From a virus, in IMG/VR virus record IMGVR_UViG_3300033571_011534, positions 11,732 through 75,731 of that record: a DNA stretch of 64,000 nucleotides; one strand, 5' to 3'. Below the pieces are notes generated by a model. That model saw nothing but the letters and a program-made list of their open reading frames with translations. It searched no databases and was not told the DNA's origin. How positions within the stretch are numbered: the stretch's first letter is position 1; the number at the start of each line of letters is the position of its first letter. Shown one piece after another: positions 1 to 64,000 of the stretch. Both the position numbers and the translations under genes were made by a program.

Positions 1-219
1 TTCCATTTTTTTATTAATATCTGAAAATACTGTCTTTGTTTTGAATTCTAAATTTTTACCATACCAAAAATCTGCAAAATCTTCGCCTTTTGCCGTGTCT
101 TCAGAAAACCAATCTTTTTCGCTAAGGCTATTTATAATATTAAAAACTTCGCCAAACTCCTCTTCAGAAAGAAAATTATTAATTTCATAGACACCCTCGT
201 GCAACTTTACAATTTCCAT
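1..219 (-). CDS. Partial (runs off window) probable 2OG-Fe(II) oxygenase, N-terminus
   Basis: ATG at 219; MEIVKLHEGVYEINNFLSEEE resembles the N-termini of neighbouring oxygenases; catalytic motifs lie outside the window. Confidence 0.55.
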   Translation of the reverse strand, partial: MEIVKLHEGVYEINNFLSEEEFGEVFNIINSLSEKDWFSEDTAKGEDFADFWYGKNLEFKTKTVFSDINKKME

Positions 220-223
220 ATCA

Positions 224-892
224 TCACACATACTTACTATTAAAGATATTGCTAATTTCTAGATGGTTTACATTAAAGTGTTTTGGCAAAGAGGAAATCC
301 ATCTAATGGCCTCTGCCACATCCTCTGCGGTCAAAGCGTTGTCTTTTTTCTCAATTTGGGTATCTATTGTTCCTGGGCAGATTTCTGTAACCTTAATGCC
401 GTACTGGGGAAATTCCATTCTCATTGTGTCAACAAGAGCCATCATCCCCCTTTTCGCATTAGTGTAATTTCCGCCACCCCGAAAAGGAACCTTTCCAGAA
501 AGAGATGATACAAAAACAATTGACGGAGACTCTGACCTTTGTAAACACGGCACGAATAGCTGAGAAAGATACATTGGTCCAGAAACGTTTATGTCATATG
601 CCATTCTAAAATTATCCATTGTTTCATTAATAATGCTGGTTGGGCTTGCTCCTCCGCCTGCATTATTTACCAGCAAATCTAGAGAAATATCCTTGTACTT
701 GTCAAAGAAGCCTTTTATCTGATCTTTTTGTGTAATGTCTAGTCGATAAAGTTCTAGGTTATCAGAACTTATTTTAGATAATTCGGACAGGTTTCTTGAT
801 ACAGCTATTACCCTATACCCAGAATTTAGCAAAAGCTTTACAGTGGCATAGCCGACGCCCTTGCTAGACCCAGTCACGATTGCCGTTTTCAT
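224..892 (-). CDS. Short-chain dehydrogenase/reductase (SDR)
   Basis: TGSSKGVG Rossmann motif, NNAG, YTNAK catalytic YxxxK, PG motif. Confidence 0.92.
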   Translation of the reverse strand: MKTAIVTGSSKGVGYATVKLLLNSGYRVIAVSRNLSELSKISSDNLELYRLDITQKDQIKGFFDKYKDISLDLLVNNAGGGASPTSIINETMDNFRMAYDINVSGPMYLSQLFVPCLQRSESPSIVFVSSLSGKVPFRGGGNYTNAKRGMMALVDTMRMEFPQYGIKVTEICPGTIDTQIEKKDNALTAEDVAEAIRWISSLPKHFNVNHLEISNIFNSKYV

Positions 893-1743
893 TATCCCAA
901 AGATTCTATTTCTTTTTCATAATAAGACTCAAAGTCTTGCCAAAACGGGACGCCATTAATTATGTCAATGTTGTCGCTATTTCTATTATATCTAAGCCTT
1001 TCGTCTTCCATCTGCTTCCAGATGTCCTCTCCATACTTTTCTTGCAACCTTTTCCAAAGTGGGTGGCCAGGGTAGTCGTATCTCCAGTATGTTCTAATAA
1101 TATACTTTTCTCCCTCAGAGACTATTTTGACTCCATGATAATGTGGGTGGCCAGAATTAAAAATAACTAAATCTCCAGCCTGGGGCTTATAGTTATATTC
1201 TTCTTTAATTACAGAAACATCGTCATTGTCTAAGAATCTAAATAAAACATCTCCACCAGAATAATTATCGTTTAGATAGAAAACTGCGGTTACGGCAAAT
1301 TTATGTCCAGGATTATAGGCAAATTCTCTTTGATAGTCTGTGTGGAAGGCCATTGCATAGTCGCCACCATTGATTTCATTTTGCCTTGGTTCATATTTTG
1401 CAATATTCCATCCACTAAATATCCAGTTATCGATAGATACATTATTTGCCTCGACGTACTCTTTTGTTGCATTGTAAAATACGTCATTTATTTCACTTTC
1501 AAATGGACCGCATGCCCCAAAGTCGTGGTCATAGATATTTTTTGCTTCTTCCCACTGTTCTGGTGTTGGAAAACTATCAAACCTAGTTGTAAAATGTGTA
1601 CCCTCTGCATGCTTTCCAAAAATATACCAGTCTTTCCATTCCACCTTTTTGTCAAGATAGTCCAACGTAGCTTCTGGACTCTTTAATGCGTTTTTAAAGA
1701 CCCAGACTGTGTTGTGGATTTTCTGAATATCAAAATTAGACAC
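892..1743 (-). CDS. 2OG-Fe(II) oxygenase, prolyl 4-hydroxylase-like
   Basis: HTD, YLNDNYSGG, HGV and KY motifs of the DSBH fold. Confidence 0.88.
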   Translation of the reverse strand: MSNFDIQKIHNTVWVFKNALKSPEATLDYLDKKVEWKDWYIFGKHAEGTHFTTRFDSFPTPEQWEEAKNIYDHDFGACGPFESEINDVFYNATKEYVEANNVSIDNWIFSGWNIAKYEPRQNEINGGDYAMAFHTDYQREFAYNPGHKFAVTAVFYLNDNYSGGDVLFRFLDNDDVSVIKEEYNYKPQAGDLVIFNSGHPHYHGVKIVSEGEKYIIRTYWRYDYPGHPLWKRLQEKYGEDIWKQMEDERLRYNRNSDNIDIINGVPFWQDFESYYEKEIESLG

Positions 1744-2437
1744 TGCAGCCTCCGTGTAGGTTCATATCATTATGAATCCAGTGGCTTGGGACCATATACT
1801 TTACCCCAGACTTTACTGTGTGGGCAATGTGATAGTACGGAGCGGATGATGGGAATATGATAATACTTCCAGCACTTGGCTTAACGCCAAAATCGATTTC
1901 GTTATTCTCAACAGCAACAGAGTAATCCAAATCTGGGCTAACAACCTTGCTGTGGTCCTCGTAATCAGAAAGCTTAAAGGATATTTCTCCGCCATCACAG
2001 TCATCATTCAAATACATTACCAAAGAGTACCTGAGGGTTTTGTCTCCATCTAGCTGGTCATAGTGTGCCCCCATTGCAGCGCCAGTATTGTATTTTTTAA
2101 TATTAAAGACTGGGAATAGCCTTGGCTCATCGCTATCGCCAACTGCTGCGGCATAGTCTTTACAAACGTTGTACAGCGACTTCATGATGTTGATGTAAAT
2201 AAATTCAGACTTACTTCTGTATGGCTCTTCCATATGCTTAATCTGATTAAGATCAAACGACTGAGTCTCTCCATATATAAAAGTCTTGTCGTTTGAAGCT
2301 GTCCAGTCTTGCCATAGCGGCTTTCCAGCGGATGCTCCGATTTCGTCTAGTTCCCTAATGGCGTCCATAACCTCTTTAAAGTTTTCGACGGCATCCTCGT
2401 AGTAGTAAACCTTTTCGTGTAATACCTGCTTTTTCAT
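1736..2437 (-). CDS. 2OG-Fe(II) oxygenase, prolyl 4-hydroxylase-like
   Basis: HYD, YLNDDCDGGE, FPS..HIA..V.SG.KY; start placed at MKKQ, abutting the upstream stop. Confidence 0.88.
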   Translation of the reverse strand: MKKQVLHEKVYYYEDAVENFKEVMDAIRELDEIGASAGKPLWQDWTASNDKTFIYGETQSFDLNQIKHMEEPYRSKSEFIYINIMKSLYNVCKDYAAAVGDSDEPRLFPVFNIKKYNTGAAMGAHYDQLDGDKTLRYSLVMYLNDDCDGGEISFKLSDYEDHSKVVSPDLDYSVAVENNEIDFGVKPSAGSIIIFPSSAPYYHIAHTVKSGVKYMVPSHWIHNDMNLHGGCSV

Positions 2438-2438
2438 A

Positions 2439-3098
2439 TTAGTACCTATTCCTTTGATAATGTCCAACTTCTTTTATAAAGCCCACAAGGACATATCTGA
2501 TTGGGCCTTCTGAAACAAATTCTACTCCATGCTCATACTTTTCATTGCCTGGAAAAATCAACAAGCACTTTGGCTTTGGCCTTAGCTTTAAGCCTAAATT
2601 TTTAAAAAGTAACTCTCCATCTTTATAGTCATCATTGATATATGTAATAGCTGCATACCTAATAGATGGGTCTGTGTGCTGATCAGTATGAGACTTTAGC
2701 TCAACCCCTGGTTGCATTCTTTGAATTGTTGCAAGCCCACTGAGCTCTAGAGAGCTATCTGCCTCTCTGACCATGGAAGCAAGCCTTTCATAAAAAACCC
2801 TATATTCTGGATATTTACTTATATTAAGATTTTTGTCTGTCCAGTTTTGAGTGATCTCGAACTTGCCCTCAGCCACAAGGTTATCTACGTCATCTCTTCC
2901 AAACTTTTCTATGCAAAAATTTTTTAAATTTGACATGTACTCAATTTCCCAGTCAGGTTGAGATGCCTCGTTAATTCTGTCTTGCAGAAAGCTTAAGTCT
3001 TCGTCTGTTAGGAAATTGTCAATAGATAGTAGCTCATCAGTTAGCTCTTCAAACGCAATGCCCCTATCTTTTAAAACTTCCTTTAACGACTCAATCAT
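2439..3098 (-). CDS. 2OG-Fe(II) oxygenase
   Basis: HTD, YINDDYKDGEL, HGV, RY; paralog of 39880..40548. Confidence 0.88.
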   Translation of the reverse strand: MIESLKEVLKDRGIAFEELTDELLSIDNFLTDEDLSFLQDRINEASQPDWEIEYMSNLKNFCIEKFGRDDVDNLVAEGKFEITQNWTDKNLNISKYPEYRVFYERLASMVREADSSLELSGLATIQRMQPGVELKSHTDQHTDPSIRYAAITYINDDYKDGELLFKNLGLKLRPKPKCLLIFPGNEKYEHGVEFVSEGPIRYVLVGFIKEVGHYQRNRY

Positions 3099-3099
3099 C

Positions 3100-3846
3100 T
3101 TACAGGTCTTCTACCTTATACTTGTTTCCATTTATGTCTATCTTGTAGCCTTCTTTTAGCAGATCTTGCCACTCTTTTCTTTCTAGCTCTTGACCGTCTC
3201 TAATCTTCTTCATTTCTTCCGCCCAGGCGTCTCTCAGCTCTTGAGGGTATGCGTCTTCTTCACGATCATCCCAAAAAGATCCGATTGTGTATCTAACGCC
3301 TGACTCAATTAGGGTAACCTCGTGCATATTATTAAATCCGCCATCAAATGCCGCAAGCATTCCAACCTTTGGCTTAATCTCTATATCTTGTGATGGGAAC
3401 TTTAGAAGACCTCCCCCAAAGTCATCATTTAAGTAAAGAAACGCAGCATATCGGCTTCTAGTAAATGGTCCAGAGTTGCCATGCTCATCTGTATTGTCGG
3501 AGTGGACTCTTGCATATGCTCCTGGCTCCCACTTTTGTGTATGGTATCCGATCTGAACGACTGTTTTTGGATCTAGGTCGTGTACGGATGCAACTGCCTC
3601 AATAATGCCCTGCTTAATTTTTGAAAAAATGTCAGAGTCAAGACCCTCATCTAGGATCTCTTGATCGCCATCCTGCGGTAAAACAGAGGAATAGGACTCG
3701 TAAAAAGATATTGGCATCCACGTAATTTTTCCAGTTTCTGCAACCTTATCTAGGACTTTTATGATTTTTTGAGATTCTTCTGGGGTTAAAAAGTTCTCAT
3801 AAAGGACTATATCCTTAGTAATCCTGTTTTTGTTATTTAAATTCAT
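3100..3846 (-). CDS. 2OG-Fe(II) oxygenase
   Basis: HSD, YLNDDFGGG, HEV..IESGVRY. Confidence 0.9.
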   Translation of the reverse strand: MNLNNKNRITKDIVLYENFLTPEESQKIIKVLDKVAETGKITWMPISFYESYSSVLPQDGDQEILDEGLDSDIFSKIKQGIIEAVASVHDLDPKTVVQIGYHTQKWEPGAYARVHSDNTDEHGNSGPFTRSRYAAFLYLNDDFGGGLLKFPSQDIEIKPKVGMLAAFDGGFNNMHEVTLIESGVRYTIGSFWDDREEDAYPQELRDAWAEEMKKIRDGQELERKEWQDLLKEGYKIDINGNKYKVEDL

Positions 3847-3898
3847 TGCAAGGCACTCCTTTTAAATATATTATAGCAGATAGTAAAAGTGGCCAGCA

Positions 3899-4624
3899 TT
3901 AAGCAAAGTTCCAGAGCGACCACTTAGATCTCCAGGAACTGTCCCATTCTTCATACCAGGACTTAGACCAATCTTCCATTTTTTGACTTCTCCAGGCTTC
4001 TCTTTCTTCAGAATACTTGGAATCAGAAAAGTCCCAGAATGAAATTATTGTATATCTGAGTCCAGACGTGATTTCCCTTACTCCGTGGATGTTTTCCTTT
4101 CCTCCAGGAAAAAGAACTAGCGACCCAGCCTTTGGCCTAACGTCCATTTCGTGCTCAGGAAAAAACACCTCTCCACCAGAATACTGATCATTTAGATAAA
4201 TAATCGCTGCGTACTTATTTATTTCAAAATGGTTAGAGTCTCCATTTTCATCTGTATTGTCGGAGTGGACATGACCAAGACCTCCAGTTTGAAATTTTTG
4301 GGCATGAATAGTGTTAAGGGAAACGTCCTTAGAGAAAAAGAAAGATACGTGATTATTTATTTTTTCAACAATGTCATATACAGTAGATTTAGAAAGATTA
4401 AACAATTCAAGATCTACGTCTGGCTCTGGGAAGTGTCCTAGTCGATATTTATAAGAAGCAACATGCCCCCAATTTTCTGGTTTGCTTTCTATATACTTAA
4501 TTATGTTTTTGCAAGCCTCATCGTCTAAAAAATCCAGAACTTCTATTATTTTATTTTGACTGATTCCAGGAGTTCCATTATTATTCAAAGAGTCTAAATG
4601 GACAACAATTTTGGGGTCCATCAT
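3899..4624 (-). CDS. 2OG-Fe(II) oxygenase
   Basis: HSD, YLNDQYSGGEV, HGV.EITSG.RY; close paralog of 3100..3846. Confidence 0.9.
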   Translation of the reverse strand: MMDPKIVVHLDSLNNNGTPGISQNKIIEVLDFLDDEACKNIIKYIESKPENWGHVASYKYRLGHFPEPDVDLELFNLSKSTVYDIVEKINNHVSFFFSKDVSLNTIHAQKFQTGGLGHVHSDNTDENGDSNHFEINKYAAIIYLNDQYSGGEVFFPEHEMDVRPKAGSLVLFPGGKENIHGVREITSGLRYTIISFWDFSDSKYSEEREAWRSQKMEDWSKSWYEEWDSSWRSKWSLWNFA

Positions 4625-4629
4625 TTTTA

Positions 4630-5304
4630 TTACTCAGAAGTTTTTTCTTTATGAGACAGGATTGTCCAAAAGAACGGTACTGTATACCTGATACCAGAGA
4701 TAATTTCTGAAACTCCATGAATGTAGTTCATGTCTCCAGGGAAGAAGTAAGCAGCGCCCCTCTTAGGCTTAAATTGAATGTTCTGGTTTGGAAAGTACAA
4801 CTCGCCACCTTCATAATCATCGTTAATGTAGAAAAGGCCAGCAATGTCGTAATATGGGAAATCATTTGGCTTACCAGCGTCTGGTCCTGTGTGAAGCTCT
4901 TTGTCTGCGTGTGGCATCTGTAGCTGCCCTGGAAGCCATCTAACCATTGCTGGGCTAGTTGGGAGGGCGTCTACGCCAAAGAACTTATCTACCTCTATCT
5001 TCAATCTTGCAACCATTCCCTCAATAATTTCTGGAATTTCTTGATTTGTTTTATAGATAGTTGGATAGGTCGCTACACGATTAGCCCAGTATCCAGCATC
5101 ATAAATAACGGTTCCGTTTTCGTTGTGATGAGTTTCTGTTTGGTCCCAGTTTTCATTACTTCTAATAAAGTCATTTAGAGCAGTCAGCTCTTCTTCGGTC
5201 ATAAAATTTTCTAGGGCAACAATGTTTTCTGGAGATGAACCAAAAAATCCAGATGGCGTAATTGAAACCCGATCAACAATGTGATTGTTAGTTAAGTCGT
5301 CCAT
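4630..5304 (-). CDS. 2OG-Fe(II) oxygenase
   Basis: HAD, YINDDYEGGEL, HGV.EI.SG.RY. Confidence 0.9.
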   Translation of the reverse strand: MDDLTNNHIVDRVSITPSGFFGSSPENIVALENFMTEEELTALNDFIRSNENWDQTETHHNENGTVIYDAGYWANRVATYPTIYKTNQEIPEIIEGMVARLKIEVDKFFGVDALPTSPAMVRWLPGQLQMPHADKELHTGPDAGKPNDFPYYDIAGLFYINDDYEGGELYFPNQNIQFKPKRGAAYFFPGDMNYIHGVSEIISGIRYTVPFFWTILSHKEKTSE

Positions 5305-5318
5305 TATAACTCTCCTTC

Positions 5319-6044
5319 TTAGTCATACTTTCGTCTTTCCCAAACCTCTTTTAAGTATACACCACCGTTGGGCACCCGATATTTCTTCGAGTTTTCCATG
5401 TTCTTTTTCATAATAGAAAGGCCAGAATCAAGCTCGTACTCAGACTCCCAGTCCTCTCGTTTAAATGGTATCATTTGAGAATATGGTGTTCCAGCTGGAA
5501 TAACCCCAGTCCAGCCTTCTTGTATAAAAAATGGAAAAGTTCCTGGAAGGTGTACCTTATCATTGTCGATGATACCGCTTGTTGTATGAAATGGCAAGTC
5601 ATATCTTCCAAAAGGCTGGGCATACAAGACGCTGTACCCCTTTGGAGTAGCTACGGCCCAGTCTGGGTACCAGGCAAAATGCTTTTTATAGTATCCTCGT
5701 GGATGCTCAAACTGCGGCATAGGATCTCGAAACTGAATAAAATCAGAGTATTTAGGGTCTAATACTTTAGCTGAAATTTCATTTTTGCTATCAAGAAAAA
5801 ACTCGATATCGCAAGGAGTTCTATATACGTAACCAGTAATAAAAATATCATATATGGCTGGGCAGGCTTTCCAGGTTGGAATCTTACCACCATCCATTCC
5901 AATGATGCTTTCTCCATTTTGTCCCTTGTAGAATCTGTCAGCAGAGGTATACCATTCTGGCAAACTTTTTGATACTGGCTCTGGAGCTGATGAGTCTTTT
6001 TCGGACAACCACCCTCTATTAGCTAAAAATTTAATTTTTGGCAT
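5319..6044 (-). CDS. Conserved phage protein, DUF6065-like
   Basis: PEWY, TWKACP, GY..TPCDI, SGIIDND, IPAGTP..Q.IPF motifs; resembles the adjacent gene. Confidence 0.5.
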   Translation of the reverse strand: MPKIKFLANRGWLSEKDSSAPEPVSKSLPEWYTSADRFYKGQNGESIIGMDGGKIPTWKACPAIYDIFITGYVYRTPCDIEFFLDSKNEISAKVLDPKYSDFIQFRDPMPQFEHPRGYYKKHFAWYPDWAVATPKGYSVLYAQPFGRYDLPFHTTSGIIDNDKVHLPGTFPFFIQEGWTGVIPAGTPYSQMIPFKREDWESEYELDSGLSIMKKNMENSKKYRVPNGGVYLKEVWERRKYD

Positions 6045-6750
6045 AATTGGTGACCTTCATGATAATCTTTTTGGATTCGTGATGGCCGATAGGGACTCCG
6101 TTGTGGTCTACAGCATCTCGATAAAAATGAGTCCATTCCCCTTTAGAGTTCTTTTCCTGACTTGCAACTCCACGATCTCTCATTCTTTCCTGCCATTGAA
6201 GGTCCTCGTATTCTGGCCTTCCATTACGAACCTCTAGTTCGTGTTCCTGAATATCAGAAAGGGATATTGGCAAGACAGAAGCTATTGGAGTGTTTGCTGG
6301 TATTGTTATTTCAATATTTGGCTCTGTAATCATCCAAGCAATCGGAAGGTCACCAGCCAAAACAGAAGTACTTATTAGGGTTGTCATACACTGAGCTCCT
6401 CTAATAAACTGATTCGGCACAGGCATTGTCAAAAGACTTAGATTTTCATTGTTTTCTTTTACAAATGTAATGTCTGTGTAAAAGCTAACAGTTCTGTTTC
6501 CACGATTTGGATGAGCATAATTTGAACCAGAAAGAATTTTTACGTGCTCTCCTCTTGAATCATTTATTCCATCCCAAATAAACGTAATATCTTCTGGGTA
6601 CGAAATGCCCCACCCAAGTCTATTTGACAAAGAAACAGGAAAGCACTGATAGGCATGTCTATCAAAAGTAATATCCATCCAGTCACGGTGTAGCGGTAGC
6701 TGATCTATATTAGCGTGATGACCAGAAGTGTAGGCTGTTACCTTGGGCAT
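6031..6750 (-). CDS. DUF6065 family protein
   Basis: RDWMD...HAYQCFP.SLSN.LGW signature recalled for DUF6065. Confidence 0.65.
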   Translation of the reverse strand: MPKVTAYTSGHHANIDQLPLHRDWMDITFDRHAYQCFPVSLSNRLGWGISYPEDITFIWDGINDSRGEHVKILSGSNYAHPNRGNRTVSFYTDITFVKENNENLSLLTMPVPNQFIRGAQCMTTLISTSVLAGDLPIAWMITEPNIEITIPANTPIASVLPISLSDIQEHELEVRNGRPEYEDLQWQERMRDRGVASQEKNSKGEWTHFYRDAVDHNGVPIGHHESKKIIMKVTNYAKN

Positions 6751-7454
6751 CAGGAACCTGTCTCTTGGTAGAACTTTGGATTGTGATATTTATCTGAGTA
6801 ATCCAGCATTGTCACAATAGAATGCTTTATTCCAGACTCTACTGGCAACGATTTGTGAGGATACATGTAGTTAGATGGGAAGATGAAAAGATCTCCTGCC
6901 CTTGGCTTTACCTTTAGCCCCTGTAGTCTAAATTCTAGCTCTCCACCAGTATAGTCATCATTTGGATAGGCAACAAGCGAAACAACACAGTTATAGGAGT
7001 AACCGTTGTCAGAATGCTCTTGGAAGTGTTGTCCTGGACCATATTTTACAAAGTTCATTGCTTCCCAGTAGCGGAGCTCTCCGACGTTGAATCGTCTTGA
7101 GTAATCTTTTACTGCTGCGATTTCTCTATCATAAACATCTTGCCACAACTGCTGAAGCTTTTGAGATGCTGGAGATTGGTCATGCATAATATCTGTTTTC
7201 TTGTACTTAAAATCCCAGCAGTCACGGTATTCTGGCATCTTGGTACCGTAGCCCACCATAGCTTCCATGTAGTTGTAGTAGTTTGTATTATCGTCCAAAA
7301 CCTCTTCGAGTCTATTTATGATATCCATATCTGTAGGAAGGACATCGTGGTATACGAATATGCCAGGAGATAGCTCCTCTACAGAAGACCAAGTCTGCTC
7401 TTCGATCTGATAGTATTCCTGAATTCTTCTGCTTAAATCTTCAACTTTTTCCAT
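6750..7454 (-). CDS. 2OG-Fe(II) oxygenase
   Basis: FVKY, HSD, NDDYTGGEL, FPSNYMYPH, SG.K. Confidence 0.9.
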   Translation of the reverse strand: MEKVEDLSRRIQEYYQIEEQTWSSVEELSPGIFVYHDVLPTDMDIINRLEEVLDDNTNYYNYMEAMVGYGTKMPEYRDCWDFKYKKTDIMHDQSPASQKLQQLWQDVYDREIAAVKDYSRRFNVGELRYWEAMNFVKYGPGQHFQEHSDNGYSYNCVVSLVAYPNDDYTGGELEFRLQGLKVKPRAGDLFIFPSNYMYPHKSLPVESGIKHSIVTMLDYSDKYHNPKFYQETGS

Positions 7455-7464
7455 TTTTCACCAA

Positions 7465-8220
7465 TCAGTATGTTATCTTTGTCGAGTCCTCTTGCCTATA
7501 TGGGAAATATCTTAGATTTCCACGATCATTGTAGTCTGTCATAACAACCACAGAGTACTTTGTACCGCTTTTCATTGGCAATGAGGCGTGTTCATATATA
7601 TATGTAGATGGGAAAACAGCAATATCTCCAGGCTTTGGCTTAATAGTTAAATCAAACCTTGGGAAGTAAAGCTCTCCACCCTCATAATCATCGTTTAGGT
7701 ATGCAACAACAGAGACTGTAGTCACATATGCGGGACCATGGTCTGCATGAATATTAAAATGCTTCCCCTCTCCCTCATACTTTACAAAATTAAATGCTTC
7801 GTAGTATGATATTCCTACTCCCCAATAGTGTCCATAATCCTGGACATTTGGGTGAATAGCCTGAAATGCCTTTTCGTGCATATCATATAGTTCTGAGTTT
7901 TCTGGATTTCTTGGGCCGTAGGAAGTACTATTAATTTTAAAGTCTACACAATCTCTTGCATCTGATAAAACAGCATCAGACTCTGTTACCATGGCTCCGT
8001 GCCACTTATAGACATCACTTGTGCTATTCGTAAGCTTTGACTCTAGGGTATTTATAATGCTCTTACAGTCGTTAAAAGAAATAGCATTATTGTAAATATT
8101 AATTCCAAGTGCTGGATTTGATACTAAAATACCGCCACCTGTTGTTCTGTCTGGCATTCTGTTGCTATAAGTTTCGGATCTATCTTTAGTTAGCCAAGGA
8201 TTTTCATATTGTTGTTCCAT
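7465..8220 (-). CDS. 2OG-Fe(II) oxygenase
   Basis: FVKY, HAD, YLNDDYEGGEL, FPSTYIYEH, SGTKY; leaderless after TGATATAAT (8227-8235, minus). Confidence 0.9.
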   Translation of the reverse strand: MEQQYENPWLTKDRSETYSNRMPDRTTGGGILVSNPALGINIYNNAISFNDCKSIINTLESKLTNSTSDVYKWHGAMVTESDAVLSDARDCVDFKINSTSYGPRNPENSELYDMHEKAFQAIHPNVQDYGHYWGVGISYYEAFNFVKYEGEGKHFNIHADHGPAYVTTVSVVAYLNDDYEGGELYFPRFDLTIKPKPGDIAVFPSTYIYEHASLPMKSGTKYSVVVMTDYNDRGNLRYFPYRQEDSTKITY

Positions 8221-8244
8221 GCAGCAATTATATCACAGTGGCCA

Positions 8245-8289
8245 AAACAGAAAAACTGCAAGTTATTTCTAACCTGCAGCTTTCTGTTT
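8245..8289 (-). terminator. Hairpin/intrinsic terminator after the FN3-PPFF gene
   Basis: Imperfect inverted repeat aaacagaaa..ctgca / tgcag..tttctgttt; T-run on minus strand. Confidence 0.6.
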
Positions 8290-8299
8290 ATACGCTAAC

Positions 8300-9112
8300 C
8301 TAGCAGCGGGGTGGACATCCACCAAACCTTGGGAAGAATGGACCGAATCTAGGGAAGAATGGCGGGAAGAATGGTGGGAAGAATGGGAAGAACGGTGGGA
8401 AGAACGGCGGGAAGAACGGTGGGAAGAATGGTGGGAAGAATGGGAACCATGGTGGGAAAAATGGTGGGAAGAACGGGAACCATGGTGGGAAGAATGGGGG
8501 GAAGAACGGTGGAGTAGTAGTAATGTCTCCAGAATATGGAGACCACTCTCCTAGGCCATTTGCATTTTGAGCACGTACACGATATGCCTGAGTAGTAGAA
8601 CCCTCTTGAGCAACGGTAACAGAAGTGCTTGTAGTGGACCCACTCTTGCTATCTGTACTTTCCCAAGAATAAGAAGTAATAGTACTTCCTCCGTTATTTG
8701 GGATATTCCAGCTTACAATATCCTCATTAACTTGTGGGCTAGCTGAAGGAGCATTAGGCGCTGCTGGAACTGTGGTTGCTGTAACACTTACAGATGAAGA
8801 TGGCTGAGAAGTTCCAGCATTATTAGATGCAGTTACTGTAACAGAGTAGCTAACATTAGAGGCAAGACCCTCTACGGAAATTGGAGAAGAAGATCCTGTG
8901 CCAGTTCTAGTGGTCTGGCCAGATGCTGTAGCAGTTACAGTATAAGAGTTGGCAGCTGGAGAATCATCTGGCAAAGAGAACGACACAGTTGCTGCGCCGT
9001 TATTAAAAGCTCTTGATGTCCCTACGTTTTGTGCTGATACATTGATCGGAGCCTTAGGCTCTAAAAAGTCATTCTGCTGTGACGACCTTCCGCCAACTTC
9101 TTTCTTTGCCAT
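8300..9112 (-). CDS. Two fibronectin type III domains plus C-terminal (PPFF)n repeat tail; probable virion-surface protein
   Basis: FN3 signatures (GLASNVSYSVTVTASNNAG; VSW..P.NGGS.IT.Y...YRVRAQNANG.GEWS); 70-aa Pro/Phe tail ending GCPPRC. Confidence 0.8.
   Translation of the reverse strand: MAKKEVGGRSSQQNDFLEPKAPINVSAQNVGTSRAFNNGAATVSFSLPDDSPAANSYTVTATASGQTTRTGTGSSSPISVEGLASNVSYSVTVTASNNAGTSQPSSSVSVTATTVPAAPNAPSASPQVNEDIVSWNIPNNGGSTITSYSWESTDSKSGSTTSTSVTVAQEGSTTQAYRVRAQNANGLGEWSPYSGDITTTPPFFPPFFPPWFPFFPPFFPPWFPFFPPFFPPFFPPFFPPFFPFFPPFFPPFFPRFGPFFPRFGGCPPRC
8303..8512 (-). repeat. Coding tandem repeat, ~12-bp unit encoding PPFF/PPWF/PFF/PRFG
   Basis: Plus-strand gggaagaa(t/c)gg(t/c) repeated, with synonymous variation. 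Confidence 0.95.
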
Positions 9113-9208: not shown

Positions 9209-11605
9209 TTAGGCCTTTAGGTCTCCATAAACAATCCAGCTGTTCTCTGAACGCTTTAGAATTGTTGCAGATGACCACTGAGTTCTAAGCTTTAGACCTG
9301 GTGTTGAGTTTACGGTAACACCAGCAGCACCAGCAATCGTAACCTCACCAGTACCAGTTCCAAGGATGTCCATGGATGCTCCGACTGGCCATGCCAGGGT
9401 AGCGTTTGCTGGAATTGTAAAGGTAGTTGCTGAAGATGAGCTCATCTCTACAATACCGTCTCTTAGGTCTAGGTCGTCTAGTGTATAGCTTGAAGTTTTT
9501 ACTACAAACTCAGTAAGTGATGGAACACCAACTTTAGTCTGGGTACCGTCGGTAAATACGACTCCAGCAGCAGTTAGGTTGTTTACCTGTAGGTCATCAA
9601 GAGATCCCTGTCCAAAATCAACAGTTGTTGCAGGCTCAGTGGTTACACCCTTGAATAGCTTCCAGCGGTCGTCAGATACGTCACGAACGATACCAGCATG
9701 CTTTAATGCTCCGTCGTTGTATCCTACTACAAGACCAAGGTCTACGGTGTTTGCAGCATTTTCGTGTGCAAGCTGAAGCATGTTGTCTTCAATTGTGATG
9801 CTTGTTGCACTTGCTAAAAACTCTGTACCATTTACAGTCAAGTCACCGTCAACAACTAGATTTCCTTCTACTTCTACGTTTCCAGTAAAGGTTGCACCAG
9901 AAAGGTTTGCCTTTGCGTCTAAAGCTGTTTGAGTTGCAGTAGAAACTGGCTTGTCAGCATCAGAGGTGTTGTCTACATCTCCAAGACCAACGTGTGCCTT
10001 TGTTACACCCGCAACAGTTCCAGTAAATGTTGGATTAGCTGTAGGAGCCTTAGAGTCTAACTGATCCTGAACGTTTGAAGATACAGTAGAGATGTGGCCA
10101 AGCTCAGTTGCAGACACGTTTCCAATCGAAGTAGTGCTTGGAAGAGTTACTGTTCCAGAAAGCGTTGGGTTATTAAGTGGTGCATAAGTTGCAGACGCCA
10201 CTGAAGAGTCTAGCTTGTCATCAATCTGGTTCTGGATTGAAGATGTTACACCATTAAGGTGACCAATCTCGGAAGAAGAGACGTCCCCAATTGAAGTGGT
10301 AGATGGCAAGACAACAGTTCCAGTAAAGTTTGGTGATTCTGATGGAGCCTTCTCTGCAAGATCAGAAACGACAGTATTTAGAGTGGTCTGCTGATCTGCA
10401 AAGTCATTGTCAAGTCCCAAAATGTTAGCATTCGCTGCTATCAGTCCGTCAGACAAAGCACTTACTGCGTCATTGATAGTTAAAATATCTGTAGCAGCCT
10501 GGTTTGCAGTTGTGGTTACTGTAGCTAGGTCGTTTGCAACTGAAGTAACAGTATCAGAAATAGCATCATCAGCTGCAGTAAGGGTGTCAGAAAGTGTTAA
10601 AATTTCAGAATCAACATAGCCCTTGCTAGCAACAACATCTAGGTCTGCAGAAAAAGTATTTCCATTAAGAGTAATTCCTAGTCCAGCAAGATAGGTTCCT
10701 GCACCAGAGAACTGAGTAAATTCAACAGGGTCTGTTCCGATAGTTCCTACGGTAGCTGTTTGAACCCATCCAGTGTCTCCATTAACCGTTCCTCCAGATA
10801 CGAAAACAAAGTCACCAGCATCAATTTCTGCAGGTGAGTTATAGTCTTGTGCTCTATTGGTTGAATAGTTTGTTCCGCCCATGGACTGAAGAGCATAAAT
10901 ACCATTTTGTGTTGGGTCTGTTTGATCCTTTACAAGAATTCTCATGCCGTCGAAGGTTGTGACACCGTCAATGCTTGGAAGATTAGATCCAGAAGAAATA
11001 AGAATGTTTTCAGTTGTTGCAGCCGCTACAGACTCGTGAATGTGCAGGTTGGAAGCTACGCCATCAACATATGACTTAGTTGCAGCTTCTAGTGGCTGTG
11101 TTGGGTTTGCACTAAGAACAACAGAGCCAGTAAAGACTGCTCCATCTCCACGTGCGTAGTCTGCTAGCATAGTGTCAGTATAGTCTTTGGACTCTGTTAC
11201 TCCGTCCTCAACACTTTGCTGAATATTTGTAAAGAAGTTAGGGTCATCGCCAATAGCATCTGCTAGCTCTGAAAGAGTGTCAAGAGCTTCTGGTGCCAGG
11301 CCAACTACGTTTTCGATTGCCTGGTCTACATAGCCAAGCTGCGAGGCTGGAATCTGACCACTTGAGTTAAGAGTTGCAACACCATTAGCTGCGCCTCTCT
11401 GGGTAAGAGGAACATAGTCATCAATAGATCCGCCAAGCGTCGTTGCATTTTGGAAGTAGTCTAGCTGGCTCCAAGTGCTTTCTCCATCACCAATCTTAAA
11501 AGAGTTGGTGTCAACCTCGAAACCAATTTCTCCAGGTCCTAGCACTGGGTTTGCTGTGGTCCACTGTTCTGCGGTACCACGACGCTGCTGCATTCTAATA
11601 GCCAT
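9209..11605 (-). CDS. Tail fibre-like structural protein with Mtd N-terminal-like domain
   Basis: QRRGTAEQW...L.PGEIGFE.DT..FKIGDG N-terminus; APEALDTL.ELA, GLGDVDNTSDADKPVS fibre motifs; LRTQWSSAT...W.VYGDL C-terminus. Confidence 0.75.
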   Translation of the reverse strand: MAIRMQQRRGTAEQWTTANPVLGPGEIGFEVDTNSFKIGDGESTWSQLDYFQNATTLGGSIDDYVPLTQRGAANGVATLNSSGQIPASQLGYVDQAIENVVGLAPEALDTLSELADAIGDDPNFFTNIQQSVEDGVTESKDYTDTMLADYARGDGAVFTGSVVLSANPTQPLEAATKSYVDGVASNLHIHESVAAATTENILISSGSNLPSIDGVTTFDGMRILVKDQTDPTQNGIYALQSMGGTNYSTNRAQDYNSPAEIDAGDFVFVSGGTVNGDTGWVQTATVGTIGTDPVEFTQFSGAGTYLAGLGITLNGNTFSADLDVVASKGYVDSEILTLSDTLTAADDAISDTVTSVANDLATVTTTANQAATDILTINDAVSALSDGLIAANANILGLDNDFADQQTTLNTVVSDLAEKAPSESPNFTGTVVLPSTTSIGDVSSSEIGHLNGVTSSIQNQIDDKLDSSVASATYAPLNNPTLSGTVTLPSTTSIGNVSATELGHISTVSSNVQDQLDSKAPTANPTFTGTVAGVTKAHVGLGDVDNTSDADKPVSTATQTALDAKANLSGATFTGNVEVEGNLVVDGDLTVNGTEFLASATSITIEDNMLQLAHENAANTVDLGLVVGYNDGALKHAGIVRDVSDDRWKLFKGVTTEPATTVDFGQGSLDDLQVNNLTAAGVVFTDGTQTKVGVPSLTEFVVKTSSYTLDDLDLRDGIVEMSSSSATTFTIPANATLAWPVGASMDILGTGTGEVTIAGAAGVTVNSTPGLKLRTQWSSATILKRSENSWIVYGDLKA

Positions 11606-12153: not shown

Positions 12154-14445
12154 CTATGAAAGTAATGTTCCCATTACCTTGATTGTTGAATTGTTGTTGG
12201 TTGGGGTAACAAGAAGTCTTACGTTACCGCCAGTTACGTCTGCAGTAATACCTGATGCAGAACCGTTTGTTCCTACAACAGCGTACTCTGTAATCGCAAT
12301 GTTGTCTGAAGAGTCAAGGGTCAAAAGAACCTCTGATACCTCAGTGTGAGATCCGTGAGCAACCTTAACCAAGAACTTTGCAGATCGGTAATCTGCAGTA
12401 GCAAAGCTGTATGCTACAACGTTCTGGGAAGCGTCTCCAGAAGATGCTGCTGCAACCTGAGTTGCAACCTCATTAATGTCGATCTCTGTAAAGTTAGGAA
12501 CAACAGCCTCTAGAGCAGATACTGCACGAGCATCCGTAAAGTAGAGGTTTGTAGAACCTTCAGCAAGATCATCAGTATCAGAGTCTGCAACACCGTTTTC
12601 AGCAGTAATGGTTAGACCATTCTCATCTCCAGTAATCTGAATGTTGGTTTTTGTTGCTCCAACAAGAAGGTCTGCTGCATCTGCCTTTGCACGTGATGTA
12701 GTGTAGTAAAGGTTGGTTGTGCCTTCCTCAATGTCATCAGTGTCAAGTGCGTTAATAGCATCGCCAATAGTTCCGCCTACTGCATCAATTGCTCTCTGGT
12801 TTGTGAAGTATAGGTTATTGCTTCCCTCTTCAATGTCGTCAGAGTTTAGAGCAGAGATTTCTGTGTCTGTGTAAAGCTTTGCATCAGCTTCTGCCAAATC
12901 AGCGTAGTTCTGGTAAGCAGTAGTGATTGCAGCTTCACGAGCATCTGTGTGGTCCTTGGCATTGTTTTCTGCTGTGTTTGCATAACCCTGAGCAGCAGTG
13001 TCTAGATCTGAGATTTCGGCGTCTACATAAGACTTAGTAGCAGTGTAGTCCTCGTCAATAGAAAATGAGTTTCCATTCAGATTTAGACCAGTGCCTGCAA
13101 CGTACTCTCCAGCACCAGAGAACTGATCAAAATTAATTGAGCTTGTTCCCAAAGTTGTTACAACGTTTGTCTGAACCCATCCAGTACTTGCGTAGGTGTT
13201 ACCTCCAGTTACGAAGGTAAAGTCACCACCCTGGATTTCGGCAGCAGAGTTGTAGTCATCTGCACGTACCCAAGCACCAGGCTTTGCTAGATAGATACCA
13301 TTCTCAGTGGTATTTGACTGATTCTTAACAAGGACACGCTCATCTTCGTTAAGACCTACGCCATCAATTGTTAGCAAGCCACCTGTTGCAAGATCTACGT
13401 TTGCAGCTGTTGCTGCAACTACAGATGCGTGAACATGTAGTCCCTCTGCAACTGCGTCTACGTACTGCTTTGTAGCTGCACCAAGTGCCTGAGTTGGGTC
13501 TCCAGGAAGAATAACATCACCAGTAAAGGTTGCTCCAGCTAGTGGTGCATACAGAAGTGCTGCTGCACTAGCTGCTGCATTGATAGCATCAGCCTCAGCT
13601 TCATCTGCATACTCCCTTAGAGAAGTGTCTAGTGTGTCAATCTCGTCATTGGTGTATGCGTTTGCGGAACCAAGAGTTGCGGTGTCTGCGTCATCTACAT
13701 AGTTCTTAGTTGTAGCATCTGTACCAGCAGTAGGTGTTCCAAGATCTTCAATCTTGTTACCGTTCATGTCTAGGTTTACAGATAGGTTAGTTCCCGCACC
13801 AAGAGTCTTGTTGGTAAGAGCCTGGGTATTGTCAGTTCCTACAACGAATCCAGATACTCCGTGTACGCCTGTGTCTAGGTCTGAGTGGTTGGTTACTGCT
13901 GTTGCAATTCTGTCTGATACTGTGTTTCCAGCGGTACCGTCAACAGTATTGTCACCGATTAGGTTATCAACTGTTCCCTTGACAACTACTTTGTTATCTG
14001 GTGCCTCGCCATTTATAAATACATTTCCATCAGGTACATCAAATTCTACCATTCCACTAGCACTAATGCCGATAAAATCATTTGCATCTAAACGAATATC
14101 ATCTGATGCATTTAGTCTAAAGTCATTAGTGTTAATCTCAACATCGGTGTTGTCAATATTGGCAATAACAAGATCGCCATCCTCATCCTCATAGATACGA
14201 GCGATGTCCGTAACACTAAGCTCATTTACTGTGATATCTCCTGCAGCAAAGTTACCGCTTGCATCACGCTTTACAACCTTGTTTGGCACATTTGCTGACT
14301 CTGCTCCGCCACCAGCTAGGTTGATAATGTACTGCTCATCTGCAGCATTTTCTTTCTTAAGGACATCGTATCCGCCTACGGTAGCATTTGCACCCTCAAC
14401 GACAAGTCCTGATTTAATCTTAAAGTCTTTTACGACTGTTGCCAT
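12154..14445 (-). CDS. Tail fibre-like structural protein
   Basis: ATK.YVD repeats, three DD(I/L).EG..NLY(F/Y)T..RA repeats, internal domain shared with 9209..11605. Confidence 0.7.
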   Translation of the reverse strand: MATVVKDFKIKSGLVVEGANATVGGYDVLKKENAADEQYIINLAGGGAESANVPNKVVKRDASGNFAAGDITVNELSVTDIARIYEDEDGDLVIANIDNTDVEINTNDFRLNASDDIRLDANDFIGISASGMVEFDVPDGNVFINGEAPDNKVVVKGTVDNLIGDNTVDGTAGNTVSDRIATAVTNHSDLDTGVHGVSGFVVGTDNTQALTNKTLGAGTNLSVNLDMNGNKIEDLGTPTAGTDATTKNYVDDADTATLGSANAYTNDEIDTLDTSLREYADEAEADAINAAASAAALLYAPLAGATFTGDVILPGDPTQALGAATKQYVDAVAEGLHVHASVVAATAANVDLATGGLLTIDGVGLNEDERVLVKNQSNTTENGIYLAKPGAWVRADDYNSAAEIQGGDFTFVTGGNTYASTGWVQTNVVTTLGTSSINFDQFSGAGEYVAGTGLNLNGNSFSIDEDYTATKSYVDAEISDLDTAAQGYANTAENNAKDHTDAREAAITTAYQNYADLAEADAKLYTDTEISALNSDDIEEGSNNLYFTNQRAIDAVGGTIGDAINALDTDDIEEGTTNLYYTTSRAKADAADLLVGATKTNIQITGDENGLTITAENGVADSDTDDLAEGSTNLYFTDARAVSALEAVVPNFTEIDINEVATQVAAASSGDASQNVVAYSFATADYRSAKFLVKVAHGSHTEVSEVLLTLDSSDNIAITEYAVVGTNGSASGITADVTGGNVRLLVTPTNNNSTIKVMGTLLS

Positions 14446-17290: not shown

Positions 17291-18166
17291 CTAGACAGCG
17301 ACTAGTCTGCCAGTTGTTGGCGTAGTACATCCTCTGGACTGTAGTCTAGAAGTACTATCGCAAGAAGATGAAAATGTGGTAACAACCCTGTCCTGAACTC
17401 CACCAGAGCATCGGCTCCAGCTTCCTTCTACTGTCATAGAGCAGCATCTGCTATCAGATTGAGTGTATTTTGAGCAGTCCGATCTTGTACACGTTCTGGT
17501 TCCAGACTGAGTTCCTCCAGAACAACCTCCCCAACTATAAGAGCCACATCCAGAGCTGCAGCAAGATCTTGTTGTTTCCTCAAACCTAATACTGCAATCA
17601 GTTCTAGTACAAACTCTTTCTCCAATTTGAACACCACCAGAACATGGCCCCCATGTATAAGATCCACAGTTTGCGCTGCAGGTGGGAGCTGGAGGAACGT
17701 ATCCGCAAGTTGTTGAGTTAGAAATGCTACTTGTTGAGCTTACAGATGAGCAAGACTGAGTTTGAACAGACACAGACCCATCGCTATAGGAGTATGTTAC
17801 CTGATTTTCCCTAAAGGTAGTTGTGGTTGTAAGAAGTGTAGTTCCACTACAAAAAGTGCTACTTGATGATCCAACAGAGTAACATGGCCCCGAAATAACA
17901 TCGACCAAAACGATTGCTGGCGGTACATAAGACGAATAAACAAAAGAAATCGGCAGCTCGTAATCAATTAACGTACCAGCGTTTACTGATTGTGAATTAA
18001 TTCTGTCATTAAGAGATTGGTTCGTGGTACTAGACGAGCTTTCCGCATTAAACCTTAGTCCAGCAGACTGAATAGCCGCCCTGGCCTGCTCTCTAGTTAG
18101 TCCAGAAAGGTTCGGCATGGCAACCATTCCCTTGGATGATCCGAATCTAGATAAAGCCCCTAGCAT
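17291..18166 (-). CDS. PASTA-like domain plus Cys-rich thrombospondin-type-1-like repeats
   Basis: MPNLSGLT..QARAAI..AGL...SQS..AG; three W..CSGG.Q...R repeats. Confidence 0.65.
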   Translation of the reverse strand: MLGALSRFGSSKGMVAMPNLSGLTREQARAAIQSAGLRFNAESSSSTTNQSLNDRINSQSVNAGTLIDYELPISFVYSSYVPPAIVLVDVISGPCYSVGSSSSTFCSGTTLLTTTTTFRENQVTYSYSDGSVSVQTQSCSSVSSTSSISNSTTCGYVPPAPTCSANCGSYTWGPCSGGVQIGERVCTRTDCSIRFEETTRSCCSSGCGSYSWGGCSGGTQSGTRTCTRSDCSKYTQSDSRCCSMTVEGSWSRCSGGVQDRVVTTFSSSCDSTSRLQSRGCTTPTTGRLVAV

Positions 18167-20880: not shown

Positions 20881-21588
20881 CTACATGACAAAAACTGTAA
20901 AACTTTTAACTTTTAGTAGACAATCGTAGTCTGAACGAATCTGGACAAATATTCCGTTTTGCCTTTGAATTGCCTTTTCGACTATCATCGTATGCTCAAT
21001 AGAGATTCCATAAGTATGTGGGTACTTTAAGCTTGCAGCAAAGGTAGATTGTTCGATTTCAGTCATAGTGCTTTTGCACCAAATCTCTGTATTTGGCATT
21101 AAGCTTTCTACCTCAAAATCGTAAACGACCTTTACCAAAGCGCCAATATTTAGCCCTTTTAGGTTTATTAGCTTAGAGTTAGAGTTATACAGTGTTCCAG
21201 CGTTTTCTGGTAAGTATTCCTCAATTTTGCTACTAACATCAACTGATACCTTTACCCAGCCATCTTTTCCCTGATCAGCTCCTAGTCTATAGGTTTTACT
21301 GCCAGAGTCATAGTATTTGGCAAATCCTGGATTTTGATTGTTTTTTAGAATAAACGGGCTTCCGTCTTTTCCATTTGCTCCTGGCTTTCCAGGTTGTCCT
21401 GCATCACCCTTTGGACCAGTGTCTCCTTTTGGTCCAGGATCTCCCTTAGGACCTTGGTCGCCTTTTGGACCAGCTGGGCCAGGAACAGAAATAAATCCTT
21501 CCTGTCTTTGTATTGGGGTATTCTGGACTAATTCAGCATATCTATTCTTAGACTCTACTGGAAAGGACATATTCTTAGATAAGGCCAA
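20881..21588 (-). CDS. Collagen-repeat structural protein
   Basis: About 13 consecutive Gly-X-Y triplets (GPAGPKGDQGPKGDP...). Confidence 0.8.
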   Translation of the reverse strand: MALSKNMSFPVESKNRYAELVQNTPIQRQEGFISVPGPAGPKGDQGPKGDPGPKGDTGPKGDAGQPGKPGANGKDGSPFILKNNQNPGFAKYYDSGSKTYRLGADQGKDGWVKVSVDVSSKIEEYLPENAGTLYNSNSKLINLKGLNIGALVKVVYDFEVESLMPNTEIWCKSTMTEIEQSTFAASLKYPHTYGISIEHTMIVEKAIQRQNGIFVQIRSDYDCLLKVKSFTVFVM

Positions 21589-22749: not shown

Positions 22750-23388
22750 ATGTCGGTTCAGGTTATTGATAGCTACATTTCGGATTACGATGCAAGGATG
22801 ATCATCGATGGATTTTCTCCGCACCTGGTAGCCAGCGGCCGAATTGGTATGGCTGAGGCTCAGTACGCAGATCCAGTTAAGGCGATTAACAACATTTACG
22901 AAGGTAAGCCGATTATTGACAATGAGGAGTCACTTGAGGCTGCAGCACTTTTTACAGAAACTGTTAACAAGATCGCAAAAGAGATCAGCGAATTTTACAA
23001 CGTAGAGGCAGTGCCTGCAAGCTCGATTTTTGCAGAGGTTTCTCAAGGCGGTAAAAATGGACTTCACTGCGATAGTGTCATGATAGACGGCACTCCGTGG
23101 CCAGATAATGACGATACACTGGATGGTCTTGAGTTTTCGGCATTATTGTATTTAAATACTTCGGGGGTAGATTACGAAGGCGGTCAAATCGTATTTCCAA
23201 ATCAAAAGATCACGATAACGCCAGAAGTCGGTAAATTGATTTTCTTTCGGGGCGATATTGATCACCCACATGAAGTTTCCGAAGTAACCGCAGGCACAAG
23301 ATATGCATTAGTTTTGTTTTATGGCTCCGCTGATAAAGTAAAGCAATATCAGAGATTTAAGTCAAAGCTCAATTTCGGCGGTATATAG
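22750..23388 (+). CDS. 2OG-Fe(II) oxygenase
   Basis: HCD, LYLN..DYEGGQI.FP, HEV..V..GTRY. Confidence 0.88.
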   Translation: MSVQVIDSYISDYDARMIIDGFSPHLVASGRIGMAEAQYADPVKAINNIYEGKPIIDNEESLEAAALFTETVNKIAKEISEFYNVEAVPASSIFAEVSQGGKNGLHCDSVMIDGTPWPDNDDTLDGLEFSALLYLNTSGVDYEGGQIVFPNQKITITPEVGKLIFFRGDIDHPHEVSEVTAGTRYALVLFYGSADKVKQYQRFKSKLNFGGI

Positions 23389-39853: not shown

Positions 39854-39879
39854 TTGCCCCAGTCGTGTATAATATAACC

Positions 39880-45535: not shown

Positions 45536-45595
45536 TTTTCCTTCTAGCTGGCAATTGCCTAAGCTTCATAGCTGGAGCATTATTGTATTATAGCA

Positions 45596-49946: not shown

Positions 49947-50237
49947 TTATTTGCCCTTATCCATTGTTAAAACTTCCCAGGTTTTGGCCCAGTCTTTTTT
50001 ATTTCTATGACGATTAAACTCTTTTGAAATTTTTCCAGATTCTAGATACACTCCACCCCAGACACCCCATTCTTTTTGAGAGATGCCAACAGCAAAGCAC
50101 TGCCTCACAACTGGACAGCCAGAGCAAAGCTGATCTATTGCTGGACGTAAGAGTTCATCTTCTTCGTATGTATCAAAAAATAAATTAGTATCATAATCAC
50201 GACAAGAGGAATCATCTTTCCACTTGCCACTATCCAT
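49947..50237 (-). CDS. whiB: WhiB-family Fe-S transcription factor
   Basis: W....C...D..LFF, C..CPV...C, GVWGG. Confidence 0.9.
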   Translation of the reverse strand: MDSGKWKDDSSCRDYDTNLFFDTYEEDELLRPAIDQLCSGCPVVRQCFAVGISQKEWGVWGGVYLESGKISKEFNRHRNKKDWAKTWEVLTMDKGK

Positions 50238-59531: not shown

Positions 59532-59535
59532 ACAG

Positions 59536-59607
<72 letters not shown>

Positions 59608-59624
59608 AAGGCCACTATTTATAA

Positions 59625-61617: not shown

Positions 61618-64000
<2,383 letters not shown>

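Follow-up and report, generated by a model that had tools for sequence, protein, structure and literature searches.

What do the long runs of Fe(II)/2-oxoglutarate (2OG) oxygenase genes carried by some phages act on? Such tandem arrays have been noted in aquatic phages at least since 2010, with DNA repair, 2-oxoglutarate balance, and metabolite synthesis as the proposed roles (Sullivan et al. 2010; PMC2938197). The question is posed again by a 64,000-nucleotide stretch of viral DNA, here called the window, which comprises bases 11732-75731 of the 75.7-kb IMG/VR record IMGVR_UViG_3300033571_011534 (CheckV completeness, 67%); the remaining 11.7 kb of the record was retrieved for the DNA past the window edge, and coordinates there are given as L001. 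One end of the window holds an island in which a gene for a protein with two FN3 domains and a tail of Pro-Pro-Phe-Phe units (the FN3-PPFF gene) adjoins an array of oxygenase genes. We put at about one-half the probability that this Pro/Phe tract is a substrate of at least some of the island oxygenases, and likewise the probability that the island is a phage-encoded tailoring system for the phage's own protein.

Linkage of Pro/aromatic repeats to oxygenase arrays

Genes for Pro/aromatic-repeat proteins are strongly linked to oxygenase arrays, and the linkage has a direction and recurs. A (PPFF)4 DNA pattern found at least 120 viral contigs, and every match was an in-frame PP[F/Y/H/W]F tract. 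The oxygenase family PF13640 was present in 43 of 49 viral records with (PPFF)4 among the matches listed, typically with 6 to 9 matches; the six records without it are 13-31% complete. Neighboring genes were counted with a hidden Markov model of the phage's own 12 oxygenase paralogues, using only cases with 3 kb of visible DNA on the side concerned. Among the matches listed, an oxygenase lay within 3 kb downstream of the repeat gene in 57/72 cases and within 3 kb upstream in 1/48, a fiber-like gene lay within 3 kb upstream in 42/48, and a DUF6065-type gene lay downstream in 41/72. Given these downstream and upstream counts, the order of fiber gene, repeat gene, and array is fixed, and gaps of 9-15 nt at the repeat gene are common.

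The reverse test covered 113 further contigs, picked in a DNA motif scan by the oxygenase motif NDDYEGGEL alone. Repeats were present in none of the 51 loci with one oxygenase, in 2 of the 26 with two or three, and in 12 of the 36 with four or more (16 of 36 when PPGFF variants are counted). Of the array loci, 24 showed no repeat in the stretch that was fetched; for 10 of these, the record contains one at another place, as it does for nine of the ten whose records reach at least 17 kb. The tenth, a complete 112-kb genome, was considered as an array without repeats and set aside as such, since it encodes an FN3 homologue (44% identical) with PPGFF[A/G/S] tail repeats. Pro-Pro-Gly is the standard test substrate of collagen prolyl 4-hydroxylases (P4Hs). 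Collagen-like open reading frames (ORFs) occurred in 2 of the 36 array loci and were not enriched. An earlier note on this DNA had suggested co-occurrence and synteny as a check on its proposal that the array modifies the tail, and both directions of the search agree with that proposal, repeats being found only where oxygenases are multiple. Arrays occurring independently of PPFF genes in related phages, which the same note had named as counterevidence, did not appear among the long records, where either a repeat or the PPGFF variant was present.

The tract is a module borne by unrelated carriers, nearly always in array-bearing phages. The repeat proteins sort into 23 clusters by their nonrepeat parts, which form unrelated families, and an oxygenase is found downstream of 53/58 FN3-type proteins, 10/14 of a small 111-229-aa type (unscored by Pfam), and 3/3 of another small type. 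One 151-aa repeat protein (L121:2279-2731) has a PASTA N-terminal module (42.4 bits), and repeat proteins reach 1566 aa. In 596 Gb of cellular genomes, the (PPFF)4 DNA pattern was found in 10 stretches, all in metagenome-assembled genomes (MAGs). Six of the ten are the same island of fiber, repeat, and array, and these are most likely misbinned phage DNA; their bins are scattered in taxonomy (Verrucomicrobiales, Gammaproteobacteria, and Cyclobacteriaceae) and therefore give no host information.

When 50,697 phage records were searched with megablast and tblastn, neither the island nor the FN3-PPFF and DUF6065 proteins gave a match, with the proviso that low-complexity filtering may hide the tail; oxygenase 2 matched only cyanophage and Methylophilales-phage genes of 25-32% identity. 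A sequencing-run search returned one DNA run, probably the source sample, and no RNA run among the matches listed. The searched literature held no mention of PPFF together with phage and none of DUF6065, and a search for PiuC was likewise empty. In G066, the 101-kb record of L193, the portal match and array genes (44881-46469) are broken by stops and split ORFs, which likely reflects poor assembly or a decayed copy.

The repeat tract and the adjoining enzymes

The FN3-PPFF protein has two fn3 stretches (PF00041, 36.5 bits), and its residues 199-270 comprise 30 Pro, 30 Phe, and 2 Trp out of 72 (86% Pro/Phe/Trp), in line with the tail of about 70 residues described earlier. The units are nine PPFF, two PPWF, and four PFF, with GCPPRC at the C terminus. 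The 12-nt DNA repeat encoding the tract is only 77% matched, and CCA, CCG, CCC, and CCT are all used for Pro, which argues that the tract is kept by selection at the protein level with no recent slippage. Across 119 distinct tracts, the median length was 55 residues and the maximum 133, Pro occurred as PP in 78% of units, and the residue before the terminal Phe was F in 79%, Y in 17%, H in 3%, and W in 1%; the search pattern itself fixes Phe as the last residue of the unit. Many tracts end in PPxFK, and others end in Cys-rich knots.

The variant repeat PPGFF[A/G/S], with six residues per unit, replaces PPFF in the FN3 homologues of L174, L177, and L235, and the islands of these three loci have no close oxygenase 1 orthologue. 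PPHF-rich tails, observed in L013, L104, L116, and L200, are followed by an unknown gene of 154 aa and an oxygenase-2-like gene, not oxygenase 1; here tail type and first enzyme may covary, although relatedness confounds the comparison. Weak Hint/intein-like matches (E ~1e-3, below the cut-off) lie just after the tract at L174:8643-9971 (-) and L050:3043-5565 (-) and, if real, would suggest self-cleavage at the tract end. A product reaching from the fiber gene into the repeat gene by stop-codon read-through was considered but ruled out, since in the 14 loci in which the two genes share a frame, the repeat gene has its own ATG 3 nt past the fiber TAA.

The whole record holds 12 PF13640 matches, ten of them in one run and two elsewhere in the window on the plus strand (22750-23388 and 39865-40548). 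Scores of the eight complete array genes range from 28.8 to 51 bits against a gathering cut-off of 27. The HxD...H motif is invariant in 12/12 paralogues (H158, D160, and H211 in oxygenase 1 numbering), and in the alignment R or K follows the distal His in all 12, so that the eight complete, co-oriented oxygenases with intact active-site residues reported earlier stand as described. Halogenases lack the triad Asp. All 12 oxygenases carry this residue and thus have the hydroxylase form, not the halogenase form. With 17-38% identity to oxygenase 1, they look from their sequences like old paralogues that are catalytically intact.

A profile of the 12 paralogues, searched against solved structures, matched Bacillus anthracis P4H, P3H1 (prolyl 3-hydroxylase 1), PKHD/PiuC hydroxylases, and PBCV-1 P4H, as well as PHD2, Pseudomonas PPHD, and lysyl hydroxylases. 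Oxygenase 1, the only paralogue folded, was modeled with AlphaFold2 (AF2) from a 40-sequence orthologue alignment out of the fetched loci (predicted local distance difference test score [pLDDT], 87). Nearly all Foldseek entries among the matches listed were peptidyl-prolyl hydroxylases, with E values of 4e-11 to 1e-9 and template modeling (TM) scores of 0.5-0.67 to CrP4H, PHD2, BaP4H, PBCV-1 vCPH, and PPHD. Several of these listed structures were solved with substrate, namely, algal P4H with (Ser-Pro)5, PHD2 with HIF peptides, and a P4H-EF-Tu complex. Oxygenase 1 is thus predicted to adopt a double-stranded beta-helix with a peptidyl-prolyl-hydroxylase-like fold, and the enzyme class is compatible with a Pro-rich peptide substrate. 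Modeling oxygenase 1 in complex with the 75-residue tail, run without controls, gave a score of 0.00, which speaks neither for nor against binding.

Layout of the island and its partner genes

All island genes lie on the minus strand of the window (Table 1) and follow in transcription order from two fiber genes through the FN3-PPFF gene and the oxygenase array, which includes two 240-aa genes, to a short-chain dehydrogenase/reductase (SDR) and oxygenase 9. The last of these, noted earlier as running off the window, is completed in the retrieved DNA, and the island runs 1.7 kb past the edge with a 193-aa gene and a tenth oxygenase. The 193-aa gene (L001:10806-11387) has no family in Pfam or NCBIfam, and a "methyltransferase-like" label considered for it is unsupported. 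Past oxygenase 10 come a collagen-like Mtd_N fiber (L001:9000-9998) and the second PPFF protein (L001:8119-8991), whose seven PPFF units stand between an FN3-like domain and a He_PIG Ig domain; a 1193-aa protein, the portal, the prohead protease, and the major capsid protein follow. Two PPFF proteins, each last in its own fiber cassette, therefore bracket a ten-oxygenase island within the structural module, and the same bracket of two repeat genes is seen in L031 and L151. In most loci, the gene immediately before the repeat gene encodes a relative of the fiber protein from 9209-11605, and in gene maps of other island types, relatives of oxygenase 3 are the oxygenases adjoining the repeat gene. 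A terminator for the FN3 gene had been reported earlier, and a terminator-like hairpin is indeed present 3' of the FN3-PPFF gene at 8284-8251; TGATATAAT was spotted by eye 6 nt upstream of the oxygenase 1 ATG.

Table 1. Genes and signals of the island within the window, listed in order of transcription
Feature	Coordinates	Strand	Basis and remarks
Fiber protein, 763 aa; first gene of fiber cassette	12154..14445	-	PHROG tail fiber and virion structural families
Small fiber-cassette protein, 151 aa	11672..12127	-	Between the two fiber genes, recurs there in related loci; without family match
Fiber protein, 798 aa, N-terminal Mtd_N	9209..11605	-	PF18454, 44.3 bits; PHROG tail families
FN3 x2 protein with C-terminal Pro/Phe tract, 270 aa; candidate substrate	8300..9112	-	PF00041; translation
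Coding region of 72-residue (PPFF)n tract, GCPPRC end	8303..8518	-	Composition, mixed Pro codons
Terminator-like hairpin, repeat gene/array boundary	8251..8284	-	15-pair stem then T run; consensus match only
Oxygenase 1, 251 aa, P4H/PHD-like	7465..8220	-	PF13640, 47.6 bits; AF2 pLDDT 87; Foldseek
Oxygenase 2, 234 aa	6750..7454	-	PF13640, 51 bits; HxD..H and K
DUF6065 protein, 239 aa, predicted dUTPase fold, conserved Cys	6031..6750	-	PF19541, 84.5 bits; AF2 pLDDT 91.6
Second dUTPase-fold-family protein, 241 aa, Syn9 gp43 homologue	5319..6044	-	phrog_7084, 5e-33; BLASTP
Oxygenase 3, 224 aa	4630..5304	-	PF13640, 28.8 bits
Oxygenase 4, 241 aa	3899..4624	-	PF13640, 44.3 bits
Oxygenase 5, 248 aa	3100..3846	-	PF13640, 34.8 bits
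Oxygenase 6, 219 aa	2439..3098	-	PF13640, 36.3 bits
Oxygenase 7, 243 aa	1736..2467	-	PF13640, 41.1 bits
Oxygenase 8, 283 aa	892..1743	-	PF13640, 48.7 bits
SDR, 222 aa	224..892	-	PF00106, 138.6 bits; TGSSKGVG and YTNAK motifs
Oxygenase 9, N-terminal 77 codons	1..231	-	Gene completed past window edge, L001:11384-11962

Two genes within the array had been described as DUF6065-like. For the gene at 6031-6750 this holds by Pfam score (gathering threshold, 26.6 bits); its neighbor at 5319-6044 has no Pfam match, and its only links to the family are alignment, phrog_7084, and gp43 of phage Syn9 (BLASTP E value of 3e-5 and 22% identity, Cys motif included). When the two products were aligned with 50 relatives (52 sequences), Cys36 was invariant. 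The model of the DUF6065 protein aligned to dUTPases over residues 1-165 with VIA-align Z scores of 9.6-7.5; the best 20 rows were all dUTPases, dCTP deaminases, or viral proteins on that fold, and Foldseek weakly agreed. The SDR assignment was confirmed, with the classical motifs TGxxxGxG and YxxxK both found in the translation. Pfam scans of all island genes returned only PF13640, PF19541, and SDR, with no JmjC or halogenase family above threshold and no protease or transporter family.

Other genes in the window bear on the host. The host is likely actinobacterial, to judge from a WhiB-family gene at 50049-50222 (-) (PF02467, 46.2 bits), for which a control search matched only Corynebacterium; the GC content of the record is about 40%. 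PASTA domains are known from Gram-positive cell-wall-sensing proteins, and a PASTA-domain protein is encoded at 17291-18166 (-) (31.3 bits); such proteins are compatible with a cell-wall-binding role. Four tRNA genes (Glu, Thr, Asp, and Asn) and both class I ribonucleotide reductase subunits lie at 59458-60054 (-) and 61618-63829 (-).

Genes for peroxide handling were observed as well. The window encodes a full-length catalase-peroxidase, KatG, at 57141-59336 (-) (NCBIfam PRK15061, 1054.6 bits versus a cut-off of 981), a peroxide scavenger that is notable beside 12 O2-dependent oxygenases in one genome. In another island type, the array itself contains a glutathione-peroxidase-like gene (L040:6713-7366 [+]; PF00255, 47.8 bits), a second tie of arrays to peroxide handling.

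Candidate mechanism and competing explanations

Among described systems, the Syn9 array gp41-gp54 comes closest. Like the island, it has a tandem run of many diverged classical 2OG-Fe(II) dioxygenases, a conserved-Cys dUTPase-fold protein (gp43, the counterpart of the product of 5319-6044), and a position immediately after the tail-fiber genes. However, it includes two tryptophan halogenases and a JmjC-type member, neither of which is found in the island, whereas the island adds an SDR. For the Syn9 array, the authors who described it proposed small-metabolite synthesis and not modification of a phage protein (Iyer, Abhiman, de Souza and Aravind 2010, PMC2938197). The same authors predicted that bacterial operons of hydroxylases and sulfotransferases modify co-encoded collagen-like or tail-collar proteins (PMC2938197). 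These operons resemble the island in setting hydroxylases beside a repetitive or fiber-type predicted substrate, together with enzymes that would act on the hydroxyls formed, but they are cellular and concern Gly-X-Y or tail-collar proteins, whereas the island is phage-borne, concerns a Pro/aromatic repeat, and is mainly of P4H type. A sister island (L012:4324-8698 [-]), located after a 393-aa repeat protein, holds two gp43-type genes, a methyltransferase, one PF13640-like oxygenase, a sulfotransferase (PF03567, 25.8 bits), and an Asp/Asn beta-hydroxylase-type cupin (PF05118, 47.5 bits).

A functional precedent comes from PBCV-1, a virus that itself encodes Pro-rich repeats. Its P4H hydroxylates Pro-Ala-Pro-Lys repeats (PMC3634087) and, as a virus-encoded P4H-type enzyme (PDB 5c5t), is among the sequence and structural relatives of the island enzymes. 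Unlike the island, PBCV-1 has one enzyme, a eukaryotic host, and Pro-Ala-Pro-Lys instead of Pro-Pro-Phe-Phe, with no array, dUTPase-fold partner, or fixed linkage; its activity was seen in vitro, whereas that of the island enzymes is predicted. Chlamydomonas P4H acts on cell-wall proteins with Pro runs, and in plants and algae the substrates consist of Ser-Pro runs, which are hydrophilic and become glycosylated later. The Chlamydomonas enzyme (PDB 3gze/2jig) is the best structural match of oxygenase 1, at only 16-17% identity, and binds (Ser-Pro)5, a peptide of the polyproline-II type (title of 3gze); in contrast to the plant and algal extensin system, the island has no glycosyltransferase. 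A comparison made in the earlier note, with pathways for ribosomally synthesized and post-translationally modified peptides, fits poorly, since such pathways start from a short precursor of leader and core with a leader protease or exporter, whereas the repeat sits on folded FN3, PASTA, or Ig domains and the island has no protease or exporter family. The core of that note's proposal, a dedicated pathway modifying the tail, was partly supported, by the strong genetic link and the prolyl-hydroxylase-like fold predicted for oxygenase 1; a separate position for each paralogue, like the place of the protein on the virion surface, is putative.

We propose that the substrate would be a fiber-associated protein from the last gene of each fiber cassette, composed of a folded FN3, Ig, or PASTA module and PP[F/Y/H/W]F units. 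The adjoining P4H/PHD-type Fe(II)/2OG oxygenases would hydroxylate tract prolines and possibly other side chains, and the hydroxyls so formed would then be acted on by the SDR here or, in sister islands, by the methyltransferase or sulfotransferase. The two conserved-Cys dUTPase-fold proteins may serve as nonoxygenase accessory subunits. As an outcome, a very hydrophobic Pro-Phe polymer would be converted into a stiffer, more polar rod or adhesive tip on the particle. The tract is accordingly termed a candidate substrate, and the modified residues, the order of steps, and the location on the virion are candidates in the same sense.

Several observations weigh against this mechanism. In the window, the repeat gene appears to be transcribed apart from the array, with a terminator-like hairpin and a distinct promoter-like element in between. 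No oxygenase lies within 9 kb of some large repeat proteins (882-960 aa), and internal-linker repeat proteins such as the second PPFF protein also have none directly downstream. A repeat unit of four residues would hardly seem to call for ten to twelve old paralogues, and two of these are at a distance from the island. To a large extent, the co-occurrence reflects synteny inherited within two phage lineages: carriers of window-like islands have portals that are 49-94% identical, and in a second group (G020 and G045, portals 65% alike) the portal is only 22% identical to that of the window phage. Independent associations of tract and array are few, perhaps three to five. No PP[F/Y]F repeat was found anywhere in the Syn9 (177 kb), P-SSM5, or Melnitz genomes, and arrays therefore do not require the tract.

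Some of these points lend weight to an alternative that we consider rather unlikely and yet take seriously, in which the array acts elsewhere, on host translation factors or ribosomal proteins, small molecules, or peptide metabolites, and is linked to the repeat by position only, accessory genes often inserting at the end of a fiber cassette and the gene order being merely inherited. Its main argument is the repeat-free Syn9 array, homologous and likewise placed after the fibers, for which Iyer et al. argued for secondary-metabolite tailoring (PMC2938197). The structural relatives of oxygenase 1, which include PPHD and a P4H that modify EF-Tu, would suit a host target, and the promoter-like and terminator-like signals of the array, the two outlying paralogues, and the derivation of most carriers from two lineages also speak for it. 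Against it, the 51 single-oxygenase contigs are without exception free of repeats, and repeats are near-universal in long array records. The tract is found on unrelated domain families, each adjoining an array, and adjacency persists through rearranged and inverted array orders, as in the second lineage, where the arrays have another gene order and, in part, another orientation. Furthermore, the PPFF pattern is almost absent from cells, and six of its 10 cellular matches are the phage island itself.

It is improbable that the oxygenases modify other virion proteins, such as fibers or collagen-like Gly-X-Y proteins, with the Pro-Phe protein a mere structural neighbor. A collagen-like Mtd_N fiber does adjoin the island, two more collagen-like Gly-X-Y stretches lie in the window at 46562-46651 (-) and 21355-21480 (-), and the closest sequence relatives of the enzymes include B. 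anthracis P4H and procollagen hydroxylases; however, the low count of collagen-like ORFs in array loci compares poorly with the 16/36 for Pro/aromatic repeats, and the large fiber proteins adjoining the island have no Pro-rich tracts. A service to host metabolism or repair, in which 2-oxoglutarate draw-down, succinate, or DNA repair would make copy number matter more than specificity, has been proposed for cyanomyophage 2OG-Fe(II) genes (Sullivan et al. 2010) and appears very improbable here. The paralogues are old and are kept as separate orthologous groups in conserved order, which suggests distinct specificities, not dosage; in addition, the predicted fold is P4H/PHD-like, not AlkB-like, and the genes lie within the late structural module.

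In sum, the tandem oxygenase arrays of aquatic phages now have a genetically fixed partner, which provides a concrete candidate substrate. If the tract is indeed modified, it would be the first identified substrate for these arrays, and the island would represent the first multienzyme post-translational tailoring of a phage's own particle protein. Tentatively, and with less confidence than we attach to the tract as a substrate, we suggest that phages of freshwater-type actinobacteria build a new surface material, a poly(Pro-Pro-Phe-Phe) rod or adhesive that would be oxidized at multiple sites by dedicated hydroxylases and then derivatized. Should the link hold, it would mean that phages chemically tailor their own adsorption apparatus, and it would add a new kind of repeat polymer together with hydroxylases of defined peptide specificities.

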